Shown piece by piece: positions 793-60,676 of a stretch of DNA of 64,000 bases (positions are counted from its first letter, which is position 1; every line of letters starts with the position of its first letter). The stretch spans positions 1,602-65,601 of the forward strand of contig JAAYKD010000069.1 in NCBI GenBank assembly GCA_012522585.1. The letters are read 5' to 3'. This stretch comes from Bacillota bacterium (GTDB lineage: Bacteria > Bacillota > JAAYKD01). The notes below the pieces were generated by a model that did no database searches, was not told the DNA's origin, and worked only from the letters and a program-made list of their open reading frames with translations. The position numbers and the translations under genes were made by a program.

Positions 793-888
793 AATCAGGG
801 CTTGACAATAAAATGAATTTCGTTATAATGCAAGTGTAAACTTTACACCTAGGGTTTATAGATTAATTAAATACTGGTTGCATGATGA

Positions 889-1078
889 TTTCGAGAGAGT
901 GCGAAAGGCAATAGCTTTTCGACGCCGAAGGGGCCCGCGCGGGAAACTCTCAGGCAAAAGGATCGAAATCGGACGACCACTCCGGAAAGCCAGACTACCA
1001 GATGGATGTCTTGGCACCGAAGAAGCAATCCGCAGAGACCTTTAAACTAAAGGATCTTTTCGGGGAATCTTTCAGGTT
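889..1078 (+). promoter_or_regulatory. Glycine riboswitch. One well-conserved aptamer (about 890-975) plus a degenerate second aptamer (about 985-1075).
   Basis: Aptamer 1 contains GAGAG...GACGCCGAAGGGGC...GAAACTCTCAGGCAAAAGGA, matching the glycine-aptamer core. Aptamer 2 contains GGCACCGAAGAAGCAA...AAACTAAAGGATC. Confidence 0.6.
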
Positions 1079-1082
1079 ATAA

Positions 1083-1126
1083 GACGGAGGCGCACGAAAT
1101 ATCGTAGTGCCTCTGTCTTTTTTTAT
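1083..1126 (+). terminator. Intrinsic terminator serving as the riboswitch expression platform
   Basis: GACGGAGGCGCAC...GTGCCTCTGTC stem followed by TTTTTTT. Confidence 0.6.
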
Positions 1127-45810: not shown

Positions 45811-46025
45811 ACAAATTCTCCTTTCAATTAATTAGGTTCCTTACTAATTATAGTATAGTTAGGTTCCTAACGATTGTCAAGGGTTTCAATTCGTTTTTTT
45901 ATGCCGTTTTTAGTTATTTCAAATTTTCCAGCCAAAAAAAATCGCAAAGGATTATAATCATACCCGTCGAATTTATGGGTTGAAATGCTAATTATATCCA
46001 CAAGTTATCTAAAAGGAGGTATAGC

Positions 46026-46737
46026 TTTGCTGCAAAATTACGATTCCAATGCACCGATCTTGGGTTTAACTAAGAATGCTGACAATCAAGAAATTAAATC
46101 CAAAGCTTTTGACTTCATCATTGATTGTGGTAGTTTGTTCTTTGCCAGCACCGATCAGAGTGGTAAACCAAATATCAGAGGCCTAGAAGTGCATCGCTTA
46201 GATGAGGAAGGCAATGTCTATTTTGGTCTCTCCACCGGTAAACCATCCTATACAGAAATCAAGGAACAGAATTTCATAGCGGCCAGTGCTTTTAAAAGTC
46301 TGCCCCTCGATTCAGGAGGCTATTCTATTGCCATCAGGGTCTACGCCGATCTTGAAGAAATGGATTCACCTTTGCTTATGGAAAGATACTGGCAACAAAA
46401 CCCTGGCACCAAAGAGATGTATAAAAAGGATCTGAGCAATTTTGCTTTGTTCAAACTTAAAAATGGTTACGGTGAATTCTTCCATGTGCGCAAGGATGAA
46501 AAGATTTTCAGATTGAGGTTTAGCTTCGGTCAGGGAAAGATCCGGCCTTTCCTCTACCATATAGAAGACAATTGCATCGAATGTGGCCTTTGTGCAGAGA
46601 GCTGCTTGATGGATACAATCCTGGTTAAAGATGGACATCATTATATAGACCATTACAGCTGTCTGGAATGTGGCAAATGTTACCAGGTCTGCCCGACTGA
46701 TGCGATCAGCAAGGCATCCCAGAAAATTCCTCTTTAA
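46026..46737 (+). CDS. Pyridoxamine-5'-phosphate-oxidase-like (FMN-binding split-barrel) domain fused to a 2x[4Fe-4S] ferredoxin domain
   Basis: C-terminal CIECGLCAESC and CLECGKCYQVCP clusters. Start placed at the TTG that has an AAAGGAGGT RBS. The listed ORF starts 14 codons earlier at an ATG without an RBS. Confidence 0.6.
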
Positions 46738-46829: not shown

Positions 46830-47339
46830 TTATTCTTCAATAGCTTTTAAAACTGCTTGCATAAAATAGGGTAAGTCTCTGGGAGTCCGGGAAGTGATTA
46901 AATGACCATCGATGACTACGGCTTCGTCGACATGGATTGCACCGGCATTGATCAAATCATCTTTGATGGAATAAAAACTGGTAACCTTCTTGCCTTTTAA
47001 ATCGCAGCAGGAAGCCAGCATCCAGCCACCGTGACAAATAGTCGCAATGGGCTTTTTGGCTTTATCCATCTGTCTGACAAATTCTACCGTTGCCGGAGTT
47101 CTGCGCATGAAGTCGGGTGAGAATCCTCCGGGAATCACCACTGCTGCATAGTCATCTGCGTTGATGGCATCGGAAGCATGGGTGCTTTTTTCGGTAACAC
47201 CTGCTTTAGATGCAAAGGTAGCATCGGCTCTGGGGCCAACTAAGTGAACCTCATAACCTGCTTCGAGCAGTCTCAGGTAGGGATAGATTAATTCTCTTTC
47301 ATCGAATTGGTTTTCAATTAAAACAGCAACTTTTTTCAT
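46830..47339 (-). CDS. DJ-1/PfpI family protein (class-I glutamine amidotransferase-like)
   Basis: Nucleophile-elbow Cys in ICHGGWML. 169 aa. Confidence 0.8.
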   Translation of the reverse strand: MKKVAVLIENQFDERELIYPYLRLLEAGYEVHLVGPRADATFASKAGVTEKSTHASDAINADDYAAVVIPGGFSPDFMRRTPATVEFVRQMDKAKKPIATICHGGWMLASCCDLKGKKVTSFYSIKDDLINAGAIHVDEAVVIDGHLITSRTPRDLPYFMQAVLKAIEE

Positions 47340-49607: not shown

Positions 49608-52600
49608 ATGGAACCGATTTATATCATTATCTCTATCGTTTTAGCAGCTCTCGTTCTTCTCGGCATCAAACTCATGAGTTCTCCCAAAACAGCCGTCCAA
49701 GGTAATTTAATCAGCGCCTTCAGTATGTTGGCGGCAGTAATTTTGGTGCTTTGGACTAACAATATTTTAAGTCTCCCTCTATTGTGGGCAGCAATAGCCA
49801 TCGGAAGTATAATCGGCTATGTTCTGGGTATGAAAGTCACCATGATTCAAATGCCTCAGGTTGTTGCTCTTTTAAACGGATTGGGAGGCGGAGCTTCCCT
49901 TTTAGTTGCAGCAGCTGAAATTCTCAGCAACTTTAATCAAATGGACGCTTTTAGTAAAGTGAGCGGTCAATTGGCTTTAATCGTCGGTGGTATCACCCTC
50001 TCAGGCAGCATGATTGCAGCAGCCAAGTTGGACAGAAGGATGAGTCAACGTCCCGTAGTCCTCAAAGGCCACAATATTTTAGCCAACGGTAGTTTGGTCA
50101 TCATGATTGTTGCCACTTTTCTCACCTTATTGGACAATTCACCTTATATTTTCTTATCCTTCCTGATTTTAATACTATCCCTAGCCTATGGTTATCTTTT
50201 CTCTGTCCGAGTAGGCGGAGCTGATATGCCTATCACCATCAGTTTGTTAAACTCCTTTTCCGGATTAGCAGGAGCAATAGTTGGTTTTACCATAGGTGAG
50301 CCACTTTTGGTTGCAGTCGGTGCCATTGTCGGAGCCTCGGGTCTGATTTTGACTCAAATCATGTGTAAAGCCATGAATCGCTCCTTAGGCAGTGTCTTAA
50401 GCGGAGGCACCTCCAAACCGAGTAGCAAACCCAAGGTCGTGCCTGCGAAAGTGGAAGAGCCCGTTTTAACAGAGCCCATAAAAGAAGAAGTTGCTAAAAG
50501 TTTAGGGGATTTATTAAAAGAAGCCCAACGAGTCATCATCATACCAGGCTATGGCATGGCCTTGGCTCAGGCTCAAAATGAAGTAAAAGCCCTGACCGAT
50601 GCACTCATCGCCCAGGGTAAACAGGTAGAATTCGCTATACACCCCGTAGCCGGACGGATGCCCGGACATATGAATGTCCTTTTAGCAGAGGTTGATGTTC
50701 CCTACGAATTGATGCGAGAGATGGACGATATCAATCCTCTCTTTGCCGAAACGGATGTAGCCATCGTGGTTGGATCTTGTGACGTTGTCAATCCAGCCGC
50801 CAACACAGCCGAAGATACCCCCATCTACGGAATGCCTGTTCTTTCCGTAGAAAACGCCAAACATGTAATCGTTTGCAATTTAGATACAAACCCTGGCTAT
50901 TCTGGCGTAGACAATCCTCTCTATGAGATGGAACATGTCAGACTCCTTTTGGGAGATGCCAAAGCAACTCTCAAGCAATTACTGGCTGAATTTAAAGAGG
51001 AAAAGAAATCTGAGCCCCAGGAGATCGAAGAAGAAAAAACTCCAAGCTCTCCTTCCTATTTAGAACTATTGCACCAAGGAGAAAAAGTTATCTTCGTTCC
51101 CGGATACGGTATGGCCTTAGCCCAAGCCCAATCATTGGTCAAACAGTTGGCTGATGCTTTGGAAGAAAAAGGCAAAGAGGTCAAATTTGCCATCCACCCT
51201 GTAGCCGGACGAATGCCCGGTCACATGAATGTGCTCTTAGCAGAAACGGATGTGCCTTACGATAAACTTTGGGAAATGGACGATATCAATCCTCTCTTCC
51301 CGGAAACCGATATAGTCATCATCGTTGGTGCCAATGACGTAGTCAACCCGGCAGCCAACACTGCAGAAGACACACCCATCTACGGTATGCCCGTCTTATC
51401 AGTTGAAAATGCCAAACATGTAATTGTCTGTAACTTAGATAAAAGCCCTGGCTATTCCGGCGTAGATAATCCTTTATACGAAATGGATAATGTGACTCTG
51501 CTTTTAGGCGACGCTAAAGAGAGCCTGACTCAACTGATCGACCAGTTTAAACAAGGACCTATAGCCAAAGAGCCGGAGCCTCTAGCTCAAGGAACAGACA
51601 CTCTAACCACTGTTCTGGCTAAACCTGAAAGAGTCATCATCGTGCCTGGATATGGCATGGCTTTAGCCCAAGCTCAAACCCAGGTCAAGGAGATTTATGA
51701 AACCTTGGAGGCCAAGGGAACAGAAGTGGAATTTGCCATTCACCCAGTGGCAGGACGGATGCCCGGACATATGAATGTGCTCTTAGCAGAAGTCGATATT
51801 CCTTATGAAAAATTGAGAGAAATGGATGATATCAACCCTCTCTTCCCGGAAACAGATCTGGTCATCATTGTGGGCGCCAATGACGTAGTCAACCCGGCAG
51901 CCAACACAGCTGAGGACACACCCATTTACGGCATGCCCATTCTCAATGTAGATCAAGCTAAGCATATTGTGGTTTGCAATTTGGATCAAAGCCCAGGTTA
52001 TTCCGGTGTGGATAACCCCCTATACGAGATGGACAATGTCACTCTTTTGTTGGGCGATGCCAAGGACAGCCTGAATAAAATACTGGATATCTTCAAGGCA
52101 GAACCCTCAGCAGCCCCAGAAGCAGAACCAACTTCAGTAGCTCAAACTTCAGTCTTAGCCGCAGCTAAAAAGGTCATCATCGTACCAGGCTATGGCATGG
52201 CTTTAGCTCAGGCTCAAACTCTAGTCAAAAGTGTTTACGATGCCCTAGAAGCCAAGGGTGCAGAGGTGGAATTCGCCATCCACCCGGTGGCAGGACGCAT
52301 GCACGGCCACATGAACGTTCTCTTAGCAGAAGTCGATGTTCCTTACGAAAAACTGAGAGAGATGGACGATATCAACCCTCTCTTCCCGGAAACCGACGTG
52401 GTCATCGTAGTGGGCGCCAATGACGTAGTCAACCCGGCGGCCAATACAGCCGAGGACACACCTATTTATGGGATGCCCATCTTAAATGTAGACCAAGCCA
52501 AACACATCATAGTCTGCAACTTGGATAGGAGCCCAGGTTATTCCGGCGTAGACAACCCCCTATACGATATGGAGAATGTGACTTTGCTTCTAGGTGATGC

Positions 52601-52640
52601 CAAAGCATCTTTAGAAATCCTTCTCGAAGAATTGAAATAA
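49608..52640 (+). CDS. pntB: NAD(P) transhydrogenase subunit beta carrying four tandem dIII (NADP(H)-binding) domains (1010 aa)
   Basis: Residues 1 to about 290 form the multi-TM dII domain. They are followed by four repeats of about 180 aa, each with PGYGMALAQAQ, AIHPVAGRMPGHMNVLLAE, GANDVVNPAANTAEDTPIYGMP and NPLYEM. Confidence 0.9.
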   Translation: MEPIYIIISIVLAALVLLGIKLMSSPKTAVQGNLISAFSMLAAVILVLWTNNILSLPLLWAAIAIGSIIGYVLGMKVTMIQMPQVVALLNGLGGGASLLVAAAEILSNFNQMDAFSKVSGQLALIVGGITLSGSMIAAAKLDRRMSQRPVVLKGHNILANGSLVIMIVATFLTLLDNSPYIFLSFLILILSLAYGYLFSVRVGGADMPITISLLNSFSGLAGAIVGFTIGEPLLVAVGAIVGASGLILTQIMCKAMNRSLGSVLSGGTSKPSSKPKVVPAKVEEPVLTEPIKEEVAKSLGDLLKEAQRVIIIPGYGMALAQAQNEVKALTDALIAQGKQVEFAIHPVAGRMPGHMNVLLAEVDVPYELMREMDDINPLFAETDVAIVVGSCDVVNPAANTAEDTPIYGMPVLSVENAKHVIVCNLDTNPGYSGVDNPLYEMEHVRLLLGDAKATLKQLLAEFKEEKKSEPQEIEEEKTPSSPSYLELLHQGEKVIFVPGYGMALAQAQSLVKQLADALEEKGKEVKFAIHPVAGRMPGHMNVLLAETDVPYDKLWEMDDINPLFPETDIVIIVGANDVVNPAANTAEDTPIYGMPVLSVENAKHVIVCNLDKSPGYSGVDNPLYEMDNVTLLLGDAKESLTQLIDQFKQGPIAKEPEPLAQGTDTLTTVLAKPERVIIVPGYGMALAQAQTQVKEIYETLEAKGTEVEFAIHPVAGRMPGHMNVLLAEVDIPYEKLREMDDINPLFPETDLVIIVGANDVVNPAANTAEDTPIYGMPILNVDQAKHIVVCNLDQSPGYSGVDNPLYEMDNVTLLLGDAKDSLNKILDIFKAEPSAAPEAEPTSVAQTSVLAAAKKVIIVPGYGMALAQAQTLVKSVYDALEAKGAEVEFAIHPVAGRMHGHMNVLLAEVDVPYEKLREMDDINPLFPETDVVIVVGANDVVNPAANTAEDTPIYGMPILNVDQAKHIIVCNLDRSPGYSGVDNPLYDMENVTLLLGDAKASLEILLEELK
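50526..52640 (+). repeat. Intragenic tandem repeat: four units of about 540-560 bp (starts about 50526, 51084, 51630, 52170), each encoding one dIII domain
   Basis: Self-alignment of the pntB sequence. Copies differ mainly at third-codon positions. Confidence 0.9.
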
Positions 52641-52660: not shown

Positions 52661-52703
52661 AAAAAGCAGCCTCAGATTTTCGTCTGAAGCTGCTTTTTAT
52701 TTT
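52661..52703 (+). terminator. Intrinsic terminator after pntB
   Basis: AAAAAGCAGCCTCAGATTTTCGTCTGAAGCTGCTTTTTATTTT. Confidence 0.85.
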
Positions 52704-52755: not shown

Positions 52756-52863
52756 ATAAAAAAGTAATCATCGTACCAGGATACAACATGGCTTTAACAT
52801 AAGTTCAAATATTGATCAAAGAAGCTTCTAACCTGGAAGCTGAACAAGCTAATAAAATCTAAG
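52756..52863 (+). pseudogene. Decayed remnant of the start of a fifth dIII repeat (..KVIIVPGYNMALT*..), downstream of the pntB terminator
   Basis: aaaaagtaatcatcgtaccaggatacaacatggctttaac... aligns to repeat-unit starts (aaaaaggtcatcatcgtaccaggctatggcatggctttagc...) with many substitutions and a stop. Confidence 0.7.
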
Positions 52864-52916
52864 CATAAATAAAAACAGTCCGGTCTTCAAATTTAAGACC
52901 AGACTGTTTTTTTCTA

Positions 52917-53879
52917 TTATTTTCTCTTGAATTCTCGCCGATAGCTTTCTGCCTCACTGGGAGAACAATAGACAAAATGTTCAGGTAATATCTCAACCAT
53001 GGAAGGCTGTTCAACAGAGTAATCATGAGTCTCCAAGCCGTCATAGGTAATCCGCCTGCGTCTTTTCTCACTCAAGGGATTGGGATGAGGTATGGCCGAG
53101 AGCAAAGCTCTGGTATAAGGATGGATGGGATTGTCGTAGAGTTCATCTGCCTCTGCCACTTCCACCAACTTTCCATAGTACATGACGCCGATACGATCGG
53201 AAAAATGCTTGACTACACTTAAATCGTGAGCAATAAACAAAATGGTTAAACCTAAATCTTCCTTGAGACTGCCCAGCAAATTTATAACCTGAGCTTGGAT
53301 GGAAACATCCAAAGCAGAAACCGGTTCGTCGGCAATGACCATGGCCGGCTCAACTACTATGGCTCTGGCAATGCCTATACGCTGACGCTGTCCTCCAGAA
53401 AACTCATGAGGATAACGAGTCGCATGCTCTCTGGTCAGGCCTACTTTATTCAGGATGCTGTAAACTTTTTCATCAACTACAGCTTTATCTTTAATTCCCC
53501 TGACTTCCAAGCCTTCTCCGATGATTTCCCGAACTGTCATCCGAGGATTTAAGGAATCCACAGGATCTTGAAAAATCATCGCTACCTTATCGGTGATGTA
53601 GCGACGCAGCCTGCTATTCATCGGGCCGGAAATATCCTCGCCATCTAAAAACATTTCACCTGAGGTGGGGGTATAAAGACGAATAATCGAGCGCCCCGTG
53701 GTGGTCTTGCCACAACCTGACTCCCCTACCAAACCAAAAGTTTCCCCTTGATAGATATGAAAAGTCACGTCATCTACGGCTTTAACGACCTGCTGGCTTT
53801 TACCGCTGCCACTATAAAAATACATGCTCAAATTATTTACTTCCAGTATTTTTTTCCTTGAATCACTGATTGCCCTCAC
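52917..53879 (-). CDS. oppF: Oligopeptide ABC transporter ATP-binding protein OppF
   Basis: Walker A GESGCGKTT, signature FSGGQRQR, and the OppD/F C-terminal extension. Confidence 0.9.
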   Translation of the reverse strand: MRAISDSRKKILEVNNLSMYFYSGSGKSQQVVKAVDDVTFHIYQGETFGLVGESGCGKTTTGRSIIRLYTPTSGEMFLDGEDISGPMNSRLRRYITDKVAMIFQDPVDSLNPRMTVREIIGEGLEVRGIKDKAVVDEKVYSILNKVGLTREHATRYPHEFSGGQRQRIGIARAIVVEPAMVIADEPVSALDVSIQAQVINLLGSLKEDLGLTILFIAHDLSVVKHFSDRIGVMYYGKLVEVAEADELYDNPIHPYTRALLSAIPHPNPLSEKRRRRITYDGLETHDYSVEQPSMVEILPEHFVYCSPSEAESYRREFKRK

Positions 53880-54945
53880 CCCTTCCTTTATGATACTCTT
53901 CTTCCTCCACCAGCATGCGGTCGATACGATTGCGTAAAACTTCAGGCATCTCTACATCCGGCGCATTCTCATGCAAAAGCCAAGTGGCTGCATAATGAGT
54001 ATCACTAACTTTGAAAAAGGGCGGTTGCTCTTTAAAATCGATTTCCATAGCATAGCGGTTGCGAGAAGCAAAAGCATCTCCAACCGGGGGTTCAAGCATA
54101 TTGGGAGGGGTTCCGGGAATAGCCAGAAGCTTTTCCTTTGAGTCCATATCTGGCATAGAAGATAGCAGGGCCCAGGTGTATGGGTGCTTGGGGTTGAAGA
54201 AAATTTCTTCGCTGGTCCCATATTCTACTACTTTCCCTGCATACATAACATAGACGAAGTCTGCCATATTGGCCACAACTCCCAAGTCATGGGTAATAAA
54301 GACAATGGAAAGATTTTTTTGGTATTTTAATTCATTGATCATATCCAAAATACGAGCTTGAACAGTTACATCAAGAGCCGTTGTCGGTTCATCACAAATC
54401 AGTATTTCCGGCTCATTGGCCAAAGCAATGGCTATAACAATGCGCTGGCGCATTCCCCCTGATAATTGGAAGGGATAATGTTCGAATCTTTGTTCTACAT
54501 CGGGTATGCCAACATCTCGCATCAGATCTAAGGCTCTTTCTCTCGCTTCTTTTTTACTGACCTTTTGATTTTCCAAAATCATCTCGGTAATCTGTTTGCC
54601 TACCTTCATAATAGGGTTCAAAGAAGACAGAGGGTCTTGGAAGATCAGACCGATTTTTTTACCTCTGATATCTTGAAATTGCTTTTCGCTGATTTTAGTC
54701 AGATCATCACCGTCATAGAGAATACTGCCTTTTTCAATGATAGCATTGCCTGCCAAAATTCCCATGATACTCTTGGCTGTGACGCTCTTACCGCTACCAC
54801 TCTCCCCTACTATTGCCACAGTTTTTCCTCTGGGCAATTGAAAAGAAACACCTCTGACCGCTTGCACTTTACCTACAAAACCTCGAAAGGAGACTGTTAA
54901 ATCCTGGACATCTAATACTATTTCATCGTTGATTTGATTATTCAT
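53863..54945 (-). CDS. oppD: Oligopeptide ABC transporter ATP-binding protein OppD
   Basis: Walker [10 protein letters not shown], signature LSGGMRQR, and a C-terminal oligopeptide-transporter domain. Confidence 0.9.
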
Positions 54946-60588: not shown

Positions 60589-60676
60589 TGGCGGAGGGTT
60601 AGGGATTCGAACCCTAGATACCTCTCAGTATGCCGGTTTTCAAGACCGGTGCCTTCAACCACTCGGCCAACCCTCC
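60589..60676 (-). tRNA. tRNA-Ser (anticodon UGA), class II with long variable arm and encoded CCA
   Basis: Reverse complement: GGAGGGTTGGCCGAGTGGTTGAAGGCACCGGTCTTGAAAACCGGCATACTGAGAGGTATCTAGGGTTCGAATCCCTAACCCTCCGCCA. T-loop GGTTCGAATCC. Anticodon loop CTTGAAA. Confidence 0.9.

Follow-up and report, generated by a model that had tools for sequence, protein, structure and literature searches.

A stretch of 64,000 nucleotides (nt) from the Bacillota bacterium assembly GCA_012522585.1 (contig JAAYKD010000069.1, positions 1,602 to 65,601), termed the window in the following, contains a genuine three-gene operon, pntAA-pntAB-pntB, encoding a membrane transhydrogenase of the three-subunit type in an anaerobic-digester organism. 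Enzymes of this family pass hydride between NADH and NADPH at the expense of the proton gradient. Its third gene, pntB, is an intact open reading frame (ORF) on the forward strand (49608..52640, stop codon included). The product of 1010 amino acids (aa) consists of one dII membrane domain followed by four complete, in-frame dIII domains, here also called heads. Reviews and recent structure papers describe one dIII per protomer (PMC7614955, PMC5742237, PMC13635403). The identity of the protein as a multi-head PntB is certain. The gene is genuine, under selection and found in many organisms, with a direct bearing on how this enzyme family works; how the additional heads act is something we infer.

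The pnt operon and its array of dIII units

The Pfam profile PF02233 (PNTB) matches the protein with E = 0 and 1337.7 bits in four stretches, the best of which (aa 8-460, profile positions 4-455/456) is a full-length match to dII plus dIII. A tblastn search of the 64-kb window with the second dIII unit returned exactly four units (E 1e-83 to 1e-108) and one short relic, and the same method located only one pntAA, one pntAB and one dII. The core units begin at 50526, 51081, 51627 and 52167, and their PGYGMA motifs start at aa 313, 498, 680 and 860 (nt 50544, 51099, 51645 and 52185) with a start-to-start spacing of 555, 546 and 540 nt. Tandem Repeats Finder, with a longest period of 500 against a dIII unit of about 545 nt, reported no array, and the repeats were instead resolved by a repeat search and our own alignments. 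A preliminary description of this DNA had proposed a 1010-aa PntB with one membrane domain and four in-frame dIII copies next to single-copy pntAA and pntAB genes, all of which is borne out; the unit starts it gave (about 50526, 51084, 51630 and 52170) are right within 3 nt.

The partner subunits are those expected of a three-subunit enzyme. The soluble dI encoded by pntAA aligns end to end with dI of Rhodospirillum rubrum (E 2e-91) and keeps the GxGxxG motif, the NAD-type Asp of 'AADIR' and 'PRISRAQAMDALTS' (RISRAQxxD motif). The α2 subunit encoded by pntAB aligns with that of Thermus thermophilus; the universally conserved His of the HTPLMSG motif is present as His29, and Ser40 occupies the position of T. 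thermophilus His42. Within PntB, dII matches the corresponding domains of T. thermophilus (E 3e-41) and Escherichia coli (E 7e-34), and Asp206 and Arg258 retain the salt bridge formed by D202-R254 in T. thermophilus and D213-R265 in E. coli.

An AlphaFold2 model built on a 10-sequence alignment predicts nine long membrane helices and one short helix (aa 260-265), followed by four identical Rossmann-type patterns. The predicted local distance difference test score (pLDDT) falls below 50 at residues 268-296, 466-481, 651-664 and 832-847, and the predicted template-modelling score is 0.34. As modelled, the protein would thus comprise confident domains without a fixed mutual arrangement, resembling beads on a string. 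The inter-unit linkers in the window are Ala/Pro/Glu-rich stretches of 11-16 residues for which disorder is predicted; across the family, such linkers have a median length of 15 aa and are composed of 27% A, 15% E, 11% P, 10% S and 8% T.

The four units have diverged considerably. Amino-acid identity is 85% and nucleotide identity 79% between units 3 and 4, unit 1 shares 75-78% of its amino acids and 71-73% of its nucleotides with the others, and nucleotide identity over all pairs ranges from 71 to 79%. For the six pairs, the proportion of synonymous sites that differ (pS) is 0.61-0.77 and that of nonsynonymous sites (pN) 0.09-0.15, with pN/pS of 0.15-0.20. Synonymous sites between units are near saturation, and the copies are old. 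Between units 3 and 4, about 65 synonymous and 34 replacement changes were counted over 157 codons (pN/pS 0.153), and differences are distributed 21/9/69 over the three codon positions. Orthologous comparisons were drawn from the closest relative with a different head number, a Logan contig (L001) whose protein is 84% identical over the 82% of the query covered. The window and L001 give pN/pS of 0.05, 0.083, 0.139 and 0.092 for units 1 to 4, compared with 0.08 for pntAA, 0.08 for pntAB, 0.12 for dII and 0.11 for a neighbouring ABC ATPase gene. Purifying selection acts on each of the four heads as strongly as on dI and dII. The preliminary description had arrived at diverged copies under purifying selection, and this view holds between units as well as against L001. 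Its identities (about 90% for copies 3 and 4, about 80% for copy 1) were slightly high, and its tally for copies 3 and 4 (roughly 30 synonymous against 9 replacement differences in about 115 codons) was lower than the count given here and points the same way.

That description had also argued against a collapsed-repeat artefact, and independent data agree. No two units match exactly in register over more than 32 nt, which leaves an assembler without a long repeat to collapse or expand. An 11.8-kb contig from an independent assembly (L085) aligns gap-free with the window over 9495 nt at 99.88% identity; since it reproduces the locus without an indel, the array is not an assembly artefact. The exact protein is deposited as NLN83417.1 from a Firmicutes metagenome-assembled genome (MAG), and its 90% cluster has a second member, encoded on L085, which belongs to an ENA anaerobic-digester metagenome assembly. 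Over pntB and the downstream spacer, the window and L085 differ at three bases, all within pntB: 51324 G/A (V573I), 51437 A/G (synonymous) and 52303 A/C. The region from the pntB stop up to 52920 shows zero base differences, relic included.

The third of these substitutions affects a motif. Codon 899 in unit 4 (52302-52304) reads CAT (His) in the window and CCT (Pro) in L085, yielding GRMHGH or GRMPGH, and Pro occupies this position in nine of ten aligned homologues. Judged by these alignments, GRMHGH is a strain polymorphism or an error, not the feature of copy 4 that it had been taken for. The claim that every copy carries the full motif set was overstated; the departures are GSCDVVNP instead of GANDVVNP in unit 1, NPLYDM instead of NPLYEM in unit 4, and a changed triad in all units that is discussed below. 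The unit 1 variant (G-S-C-D, aa 387-390, 50766-50777) replaces the G-A-N-D of units 2-4 and most homologues (E. coli G389-D392). It also occurs in the orthologous unit 1 of L001 and, by this comparison, is a conserved peculiarity of the membrane-proximal head in the lineage of the window and L001.

The features of the locus are collected in Table 1. The hairpin located 21 nt past the pntB stop is probably the terminator of this gene. The relic beyond it spans about 100 nt, is 75% identical to unit 4 (tblastn E 0.001) and contains an in-frame stop; it suggests turnover of units at the 3' end of the array and, being decayed and interrupted, shows what an unselected copy looks like here. Some neighbouring and more distant features are listed for orientation. 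In L085, a 75-aa gene at the relative position matching the small ORF upstream of pntAA has a Pfam HTHP (PF11534) match; the match between the two genes is one of position.

Table 1. Features of the pnt locus and other elements noted in the window.
Feature	Coordinates	Strand	Basis
pntAA, separate soluble dI (NAD(H)-binding), 391 aa	48119..49294	+	Pfam AlaDh_PNT_N + AlaDh_PNT_C
pntAB, α2 subunit with membrane helices, 91 aa	49318..49593	+	Pfam PNTB_4TM, E 6e-32
dII membrane domain of PntB, aa 1-268	49608..50411	+	alignment with T. thermophilus and E. coli dII
dII-dIII linker, aa 269-296, Pro/Lys/Glu-rich	50412..50495	+	AlphaFold2 pLDDT <50 for aa 268-296
dIII unit 1, aa 297-464; N-L-D triad 50877-50885	50496..50999	+	motifs, alignment, AlphaFold2
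Linker 1, aa 465-480, EKKSEPQEIEEEKTPS	51000..51047	+	AlphaFold2, linker composition
dIII unit 2, aa 481-649; N-L-D triad 51432-51440	51048..51554	+	motifs, alignment, AlphaFold2
Linker 2, aa 650-662, GPIAKEPEPLAQG	51555..51593	+	AlphaFold2, linker composition
dIII unit 3, aa 663-831; N-L-D triad 51978-51986	51594..52100	+	motifs, alignment, AlphaFold2
Linker 3, aa 832-842, EPSAAPEAEPT	52101..52133	+	AlphaFold2, linker composition
dIII unit 4, aa 843-1010; N-L-D triad 52518-52526	52134..52637	+	motifs, alignment, AlphaFold2
16-bp hairpin between A and T runs, probable pntB terminator	52661..52698	.	hairpin scan (placed on the minus strand by the scan)
Decayed 5'-end relic of a further dIII unit (KKVIIVPGYNMALT*VQILIK...), outside the ORF	52757..52859	+	repeat family, alignment, tblastn
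Terminator-like hairpin, 3' end of the convergent opp ABC-transporter genes	52871..52911	-	hairpin scan
opp ABC ATPases, convergent to pntB	52917-53879 and 53863-54945	-	ORF list
250-aa protein with C-terminal 2x[4Fe-4S] ferredoxin domain, upstream of the operon	45985-46737	+	
DJ-1/PfpI family protein, upstream of the operon	46830-47339	-	
75-aa ORF between the DJ-1/PfpI gene and pntAA	47355-47582	-	
Tandem glycine riboswitch aptamers	882-1097	+	RF00504, 58.9 and 40.5 bits
tRNA gene	60592-60676	-	RF00005, 61 bits

Distribution and turnover of multi-head PntB

Multi-head PntB is not peculiar to the source genome. A whole-protein search gave 4080 hits at E<=1e-10. The preliminary description had suggested looking among PntB homologues for more than one dIII per polypeptide, and the best 120 of these 4080 all carry three to five complete dIII domains (three in 16, four in 97 and five in 7). 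Organisms named in the source records comprise Bacillota and Eubacteriales MAGs, Alkalicella caledoniensis, Porphyromonas cangingivalis, other Porphyromonadaceae, Dysgonomonas massiliensis, Bacteroidales and Desulfovibrio; A. caledoniensis and P. cangingivalis are cultured isolates. Eight related loci were inspected alongside the window: that of A. caledoniensis in the 3.7-Mb record CP058559.1, two independent P. cangingivalis assemblies, a Desulfovibrio assembly, a five-head metagenomic locus, a two-head Desulfobacterales MAG, L001 and L085. A pntAA-pntAB-pntB operon with a separate soluble dI is present at all nine. The wider neighbourhoods of multi-head pnt operons differ between lineages.

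Searches with a broader scope place these proteins in perspective. A search of 1.84 billion representative proteins (50% clusters) with a single unit gave 4427 hits at E<=0.001. Two-head forms exist among them, and about twenty of the clusters hold at least two heads, so multi-head forms are a small minority of PntB diversity. Likewise, a scan of contigs from diverse GTDB species (80 loci) found mostly canonical single-head PntB and two multi-head loci. Proteins with two to five dIII domains are nonetheless numerous in public data, where they are annotated merely as PntB β subunit. The literature searched on transhydrogenase, mostly without subscription journals, contains no description of multiple dIII domains. 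The earlier supposition that a four-headed PntB had not been described is upheld to this extent, although the protein is not unique: what is new is a class that appears undescribed in the literature searched, while its sequences are abundant in databases.

The comparison with L001 captures a step in the history of the array. This contig shares the order pntAA-pntAB-pntB followed by a convergent opp ATPase gene, as in the window, but its pntB has three dIII units. Units 1 and 2 of the window are positional orthologues of L001 units 1 and 2 (nt identity 0.81 and 0.78, where non-orthologous pairs reach about 0.66). Window units 3 and 4 have a common relative in L001 unit 3 (0.71 and 0.76) and are related to each other (0.79). 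Since they are co-orthologous to that unit, either a unit was gained in the window lineage (three to four) or one was lost in the L001 lineage (four to three) near their split.

Arrays in other lineages differ in apparent age. In the four-head gene of Alkalicella (L082 8001-11033, from CP058559.1), nucleotide identity is 98.7-99.4% among units 1-3 and about 93% between these and unit 4, as if duplication had been very recent or gene conversion were ongoing. Identity among Porphyromonas units is 83-94%, and the units of the window are among the most diverged of the arrays compared. Units inside one protein are 0.84-0.89 identical, above the identity between proteins, and in distant lineages units at the same position are no more alike than units at different positions (e.g., 0.671 vs 0.669). 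A correspondence of unit 1 to unit 1 across distant lineages was considered and ruled out, as positional orthology holds only for close relatives. When dII alone was used as a query, its nearest relatives included single-head proteins at 60-71% identity. A neighbour-joining tree of dII from 273 complete proteins, on which changes were counted by parsimony, requires at least 16 switches between single- and multi-head states and at least 27 changes of exact copy number. Within the PntB clade described below, head number has shifted repeatedly between one and five by unit duplication and loss, possibly with gene conversion.

Conservation by unit position was evaluated in 28 non-redundant four-head proteins over 166 columns. 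The numbers of invariant columns in units 1 to 4 are 48, 50, 48 and 49, with a between-species identity of 0.68 for each unit; single-head relatives have 52 invariant columns and the same identity of 0.68. Neither positional specialisation nor relaxed constraint in the distal heads was found in these 28 proteins. By this measure, each head evolves like the sole dIII of its single-head relatives.

A changed triad at the nucleotide site

Each dIII unit aligns without gaps, at about 50-55% identity, with the solved dIII domains of E. coli, T. thermophilus, R. rubrum and mammals. Most hallmarks of the site are present in all four units: PGYG, IHPVAGR, GxxD(392)xxNP, GY(A/S)G of loop E and GDA, the sole exception being P899H in unit 4 of this strain. 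At the position of E. coli K424-R425-S426 (KRG in Thermus), however, all four units read N-L-D, a net charge change of -3. We take K424-R425-S426 to hold the 2'-phosphate of the nucleotide and Arg425 to stack on its adenine. The KRS motif is part of the NADPH site, with loops D and E said to make the site specific for NADP(H) rather than NAD(H) (PMC9529548), and Arg425 is among the NADP+ contacts (PMC13635403).

The substitution characterises a larger group. About 449 units from the 120 multi-head homologues carry N-[Y/F/L]-D save a handful (NKD, NMN, NFE), and N-x-D also occurs in the single-head proteins nearest in dII (Tepidanaerobacter, Proteiniborus, Dethiobacteria and others). In the set of 80 loci from diverse GTDB species, the triad was read at 73 single-head loci and is KRS (57) or KRG (16), whereas the two multi-head loci (Treponema and Desulfobacterales) have N-x-D. 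Position 424 is Lys in 100% of 78 canonical dIII domains and Asn in about 100% of 568 clade units; about 100% of these units also have Asp instead of S/G426, and Leu, Tyr or Phe stands in place of R425. Other class-specific changes affect 423 (to C), D401 (to A), S404 (to T) and F439 (to Y). Taken together, these alignments place the multi-head proteins within a distinct PntB clade, found mostly in anaerobes, that has N-[L/Y/F]-D for K-R-S. The NCBIfam PntB equivalog NF006974 has a cut-off of 689 bits, which the whole protein exceeds (937 bits) only by summing four dIII matches; the one-head portion (aa 1-470, 49608-51017) scores 363 bits and single-head clade members 353-371. The literature searched, again mostly without subscription journals, contains neither an N-x-D-type dIII nor a characterised member of the clade.

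Arrays of three to five heads were seen only within the N-x-D clade. The few KRS-type proteins with two dIII domains include P0257, a fragment, and P0256, a 664-aa protein from a high-GC organism in which the second dIII is clearly degenerate (PGYGAGRAQAQ, LLHPLAGHMPGH, KRG). P0256 possibly represents a distal head losing function, unlike the heads of the N-x-D clade.

With N-L-D in all four units where canonical dIII has KRS, the label "NADP(H)-binding" that the heads had been given was overstated and is best treated as presumptive. NADP(H) nevertheless seems the most likely cargo, because an enzyme with NAD on both sides would have no reaction to couple, yet the operon is strongly conserved. 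A swapped specificity, in which dI binds NADP and dIII binds NAD, was ruled out, as dI retains the NAD-type Asp and its motifs. The proton channel was considered as a further distinguishing trait. No His is found at either of the two known positions (α2 Ser40, β Asn90), and the salt-bridge residues Asp206 and Arg258 are present. The absent "central histidine" was discarded as a marker of the clade, since the Ser/Asn pair occurs in 53 of the 73 canonical KRS-type loci with a triad that was read and does not discriminate.

Proposed mode of action and comparison with known systems

The behaviour of dIII in canonical enzymes frames the question of what additional heads might do. One dIII binds the dI dimer with a Kd below 60 nM, a second about 1000-fold more weakly owing to a steric clash, and dIII swivels, lying either face-down on dII or face-up under dI (PMC5742237). 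Nucleotide exchange takes place only face-down and hydride transfer only face-up (PMC13635403), and in the accepted mechanism a dIII lying face-down on dII gates the proton channel. In three-subunit enzymes, the dI dimer is attached to the complex through dIII only, and anti-phase dIII movement may be needed to retain it (PMC13635403).

We consider it somewhat better than even, at a probability of roughly 55%, that the four heads are equivalent and mobile and take turns at dII and at the untethered dI dimer, by analogy with tandem carrier domains. This reading draws on the equivalence of the heads seen in conservation across the 28 four-head proteins, on the beads-on-a-string model with its Ala/Pro/Glu-rich linkers, on a copy number as labile as expected of an array in concerted evolution, and on the untethered dI at every multi-head locus examined. 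In such a cycle, equivalent heads would alternate between a dII station and a dI station, and spare heads would keep the untethered dI dimer captured. One loaded head could stay available while another exchanges nucleotide on dII, so that slow exchange would overlap with hydride transfer; the outcome would be a larger flux or greater robustness for each proton channel. NADP(H) is most probably still what the heads carry, via a remodelled and probably weaker 2'-phosphate pocket. We speculate that in the N-x-D pocket nucleotide may be bound less tightly and exchanged faster, and such behaviour would fit alternation of this kind.

Several points weigh against alternation of equivalent heads. As exchange would require docking on dII, heads unable to reach it would be kinetically dead, which may apply to heads 2-4 on their linkers of 11-16 residues. 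With a labile copy number and single-head forms retained by close dII relatives, extra heads are advantageous at most conditionally. The solved dIII structures that were checked are all of the KRS or KRG type; with KRS replaced by N-L-D, the identity of the cofactor is presumptive. Finally, dIII has no covalently attached group, unlike acyl carrier protein (ACP) and lipoyl domains, which makes the analogy a loose one.

The least probable alternative, to which we assign very little weight, is that the array is an assembly or annotation artefact, or that it arose neutrally and without function through slippage in replication or through unequal crossing-over. In favour of this, the two assemblies of the species both seem to be metagenomic, with the k127 in the contig name of L085 indicating short reads, copy number in the family changes readily by mutation, and a decayed extra unit lies just downstream of pntB. 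That relic, with its stop codon, is what a truly unselected copy has become, while the four units retain low pN (0.09-0.15) at near-saturated pS and orthologous pN/pS of 0.05-0.14. Units that are only 71-79% identical with shared in-register runs of up to 32 nt, an identical structure in an independent assembly and the same architecture in assemblies of cultured isolates all speak against an artefact. A different objection concedes that the array is functional and assigns the proton-coupled cycle to unit 1 alone, with units 2-4 as accessory domains: a nucleotide buffer or reservoir, regulatory decoys for dI, or scaffolds recruiting extra dI dimers. We regard this as unlikely, although unit 1 alone is joined directly to transmembrane helix 14 by the native dII-dIII linker, shares its GSCD substitution with L001 unit 1 and has the lowest pN/pS (0.05), and each dIII can in principle bind its own dI dimer at nanomolar affinity (PMC5742237). 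Loss of catalytic residues would be expected in accessory domains and is seen in none of the units. Conservation is equal at all unit positions in the 28 diverse four-head proteins, with the same invariant residues kept, including those of loops D and E, and without positional orthology between distant lineages there is no conserved identity of a proximal head.

The triad raises a separate alternative, namely that the heads are not NADP(H) carriers. The N-x-D clade would have switched to, e.g., NAD(H) or lost discrimination, the multi-head state would be tied to that chemistry, and the enzyme would not be a classical NADH/NADP+ transhydrogenase. Replacement of basic by acidic residues is the classical NADP-to-NAD switch, and in about 100% of the 568 clade units K424 is replaced by Asn and S/G426 by Asp. 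Further arguments for this view are the part that KRS plays in the NADPH site, with specificity set by loops D and E (PMC9529548) and an NADP+ contact made by Arg425 (PMC13635403), the restriction of three-to-five-head arrays to the N-x-D clade, and the 363 bits of the one-head portion against the NF006974 cut-off of 689. We nonetheless hold it to be improbable. The dI subunit retains its NAD(H)-type Asp and catalytic motifs, an NAD/NAD enzyme would have no net reaction to couple despite the strong purifying selection on the operon, and GYG, HPVAGR, D392, GY(S/A)G and GDA are all intact in dIII. Moreover, single-head N-x-D members and a few KRS-type two-head proteins exist, so triad change and multiplicity are separable. 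A bolder proposal, which we regard as doubtful, concerns the clade as a whole: the N-x-D clade would be a mechanistically distinct transhydrogenase that has abandoned the canonical 2'-phosphate clamp, and weak binding with fast exchange, or another cofactor, would make up to five heads per proton channel profitable. If this were true, one dII dimer would serve eight or more heads and several free dI dimers, which would break with the strict 1:1:1 model of two heads in antiphase that was drawn from the enzymes of E. coli, Thermus and mitochondria.

Whichever way the heads act, the array matters for models of coupling, as these currently assume one dIII per protomer and two dIII in antiphase per dimer. 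Multi-head PntB provides a natural series of one to five heads on otherwise similar enzymes, some of them in cultured, tractable anaerobes (Alkalicella, Porphyromonas). This series enables tests of dIII shuttling between dII and dI, of whether exchange needs dII, and of what holds the free dI dimer in three-subunit enzymes. Because of the loss of KRS, automated annotation as NAD(P) transhydrogenase may be right by homology only, a question that matters for redox models of gut, oral and digester anaerobes. Adding heads may also suggest a route to faster engineered transhydrogenases.

Among known systems, the three-subunit PntAA/PntAB/PntB enzymes of T. thermophilus and R. rubrum are the closest in layout, with the same gene order and the same split into a soluble dI, an α2 subunit of four transmembrane helices and a β subunit of dII plus dIII. 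The dII of T. thermophilus is the most similar to that of the window, with the Asp-Arg salt bridge kept in both, and the dIII domains of the two species share with the window the gap-free alignment and the motifs GYG, HPVAGR, D392, GY(S/A)G and GDA. The window enzyme differs from them in having four dIII per β subunit, not one, and N-L-D instead of KR(S/G). It further differs from T. thermophilus by the Ser at the α2-His42 position, as do most canonical loci sampled. The two-subunit PntAB of E. coli, the source of the residue numbering used here (K424-R425-S426, D392, D213, R265), has the same three functional domains. Its dI is fused to the first membrane helices and hence tethered, whereas dI in the window is separate; it has β-His91, one dIII and KRS where the window has Asn90, four dIII and N-L-D. 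Eukaryotic single-polypeptide transhydrogenases (α-β and β-α isoforms) permute and fuse dI, dII and dIII with one copy of each (PMC7614955). They resemble the window enzyme in showing that domain architecture is evolvable, and multiplication of dIII is not among the isoforms described there.

The 1:1:1 domain stoichiometry of canonical transhydrogenase does not hold for the window PntB with its four dIII domains, for which the nearest parallels lie outside the family. The E2 subunits of 2-oxo-acid dehydrogenases carry one to three lipoyl domains. In polyunsaturated fatty acid (PUFA) synthases, output rises with the number of tandem ACP domains, which form beads on a string (PMC5067506, PMC3585217). 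These ACPs have no homology to dIII, and the likeness is one of mechanism: the cargo of dIII would be a non-covalently bound dinucleotide, with no covalent arm such as phosphopantetheine, lipoate or biotin. PntB would at most resemble a tandem carrier-domain enzyme in how it works and does not belong to that group. As in the dIII array, a small mobile domain that visits several stations is repeated head to tail on flexible linkers. The PntB array thus shares the traits of tandem carrier domains, i.e., mobile head-to-tail repeats, flexible linkers of low complexity and a copy number that varies among relatives.

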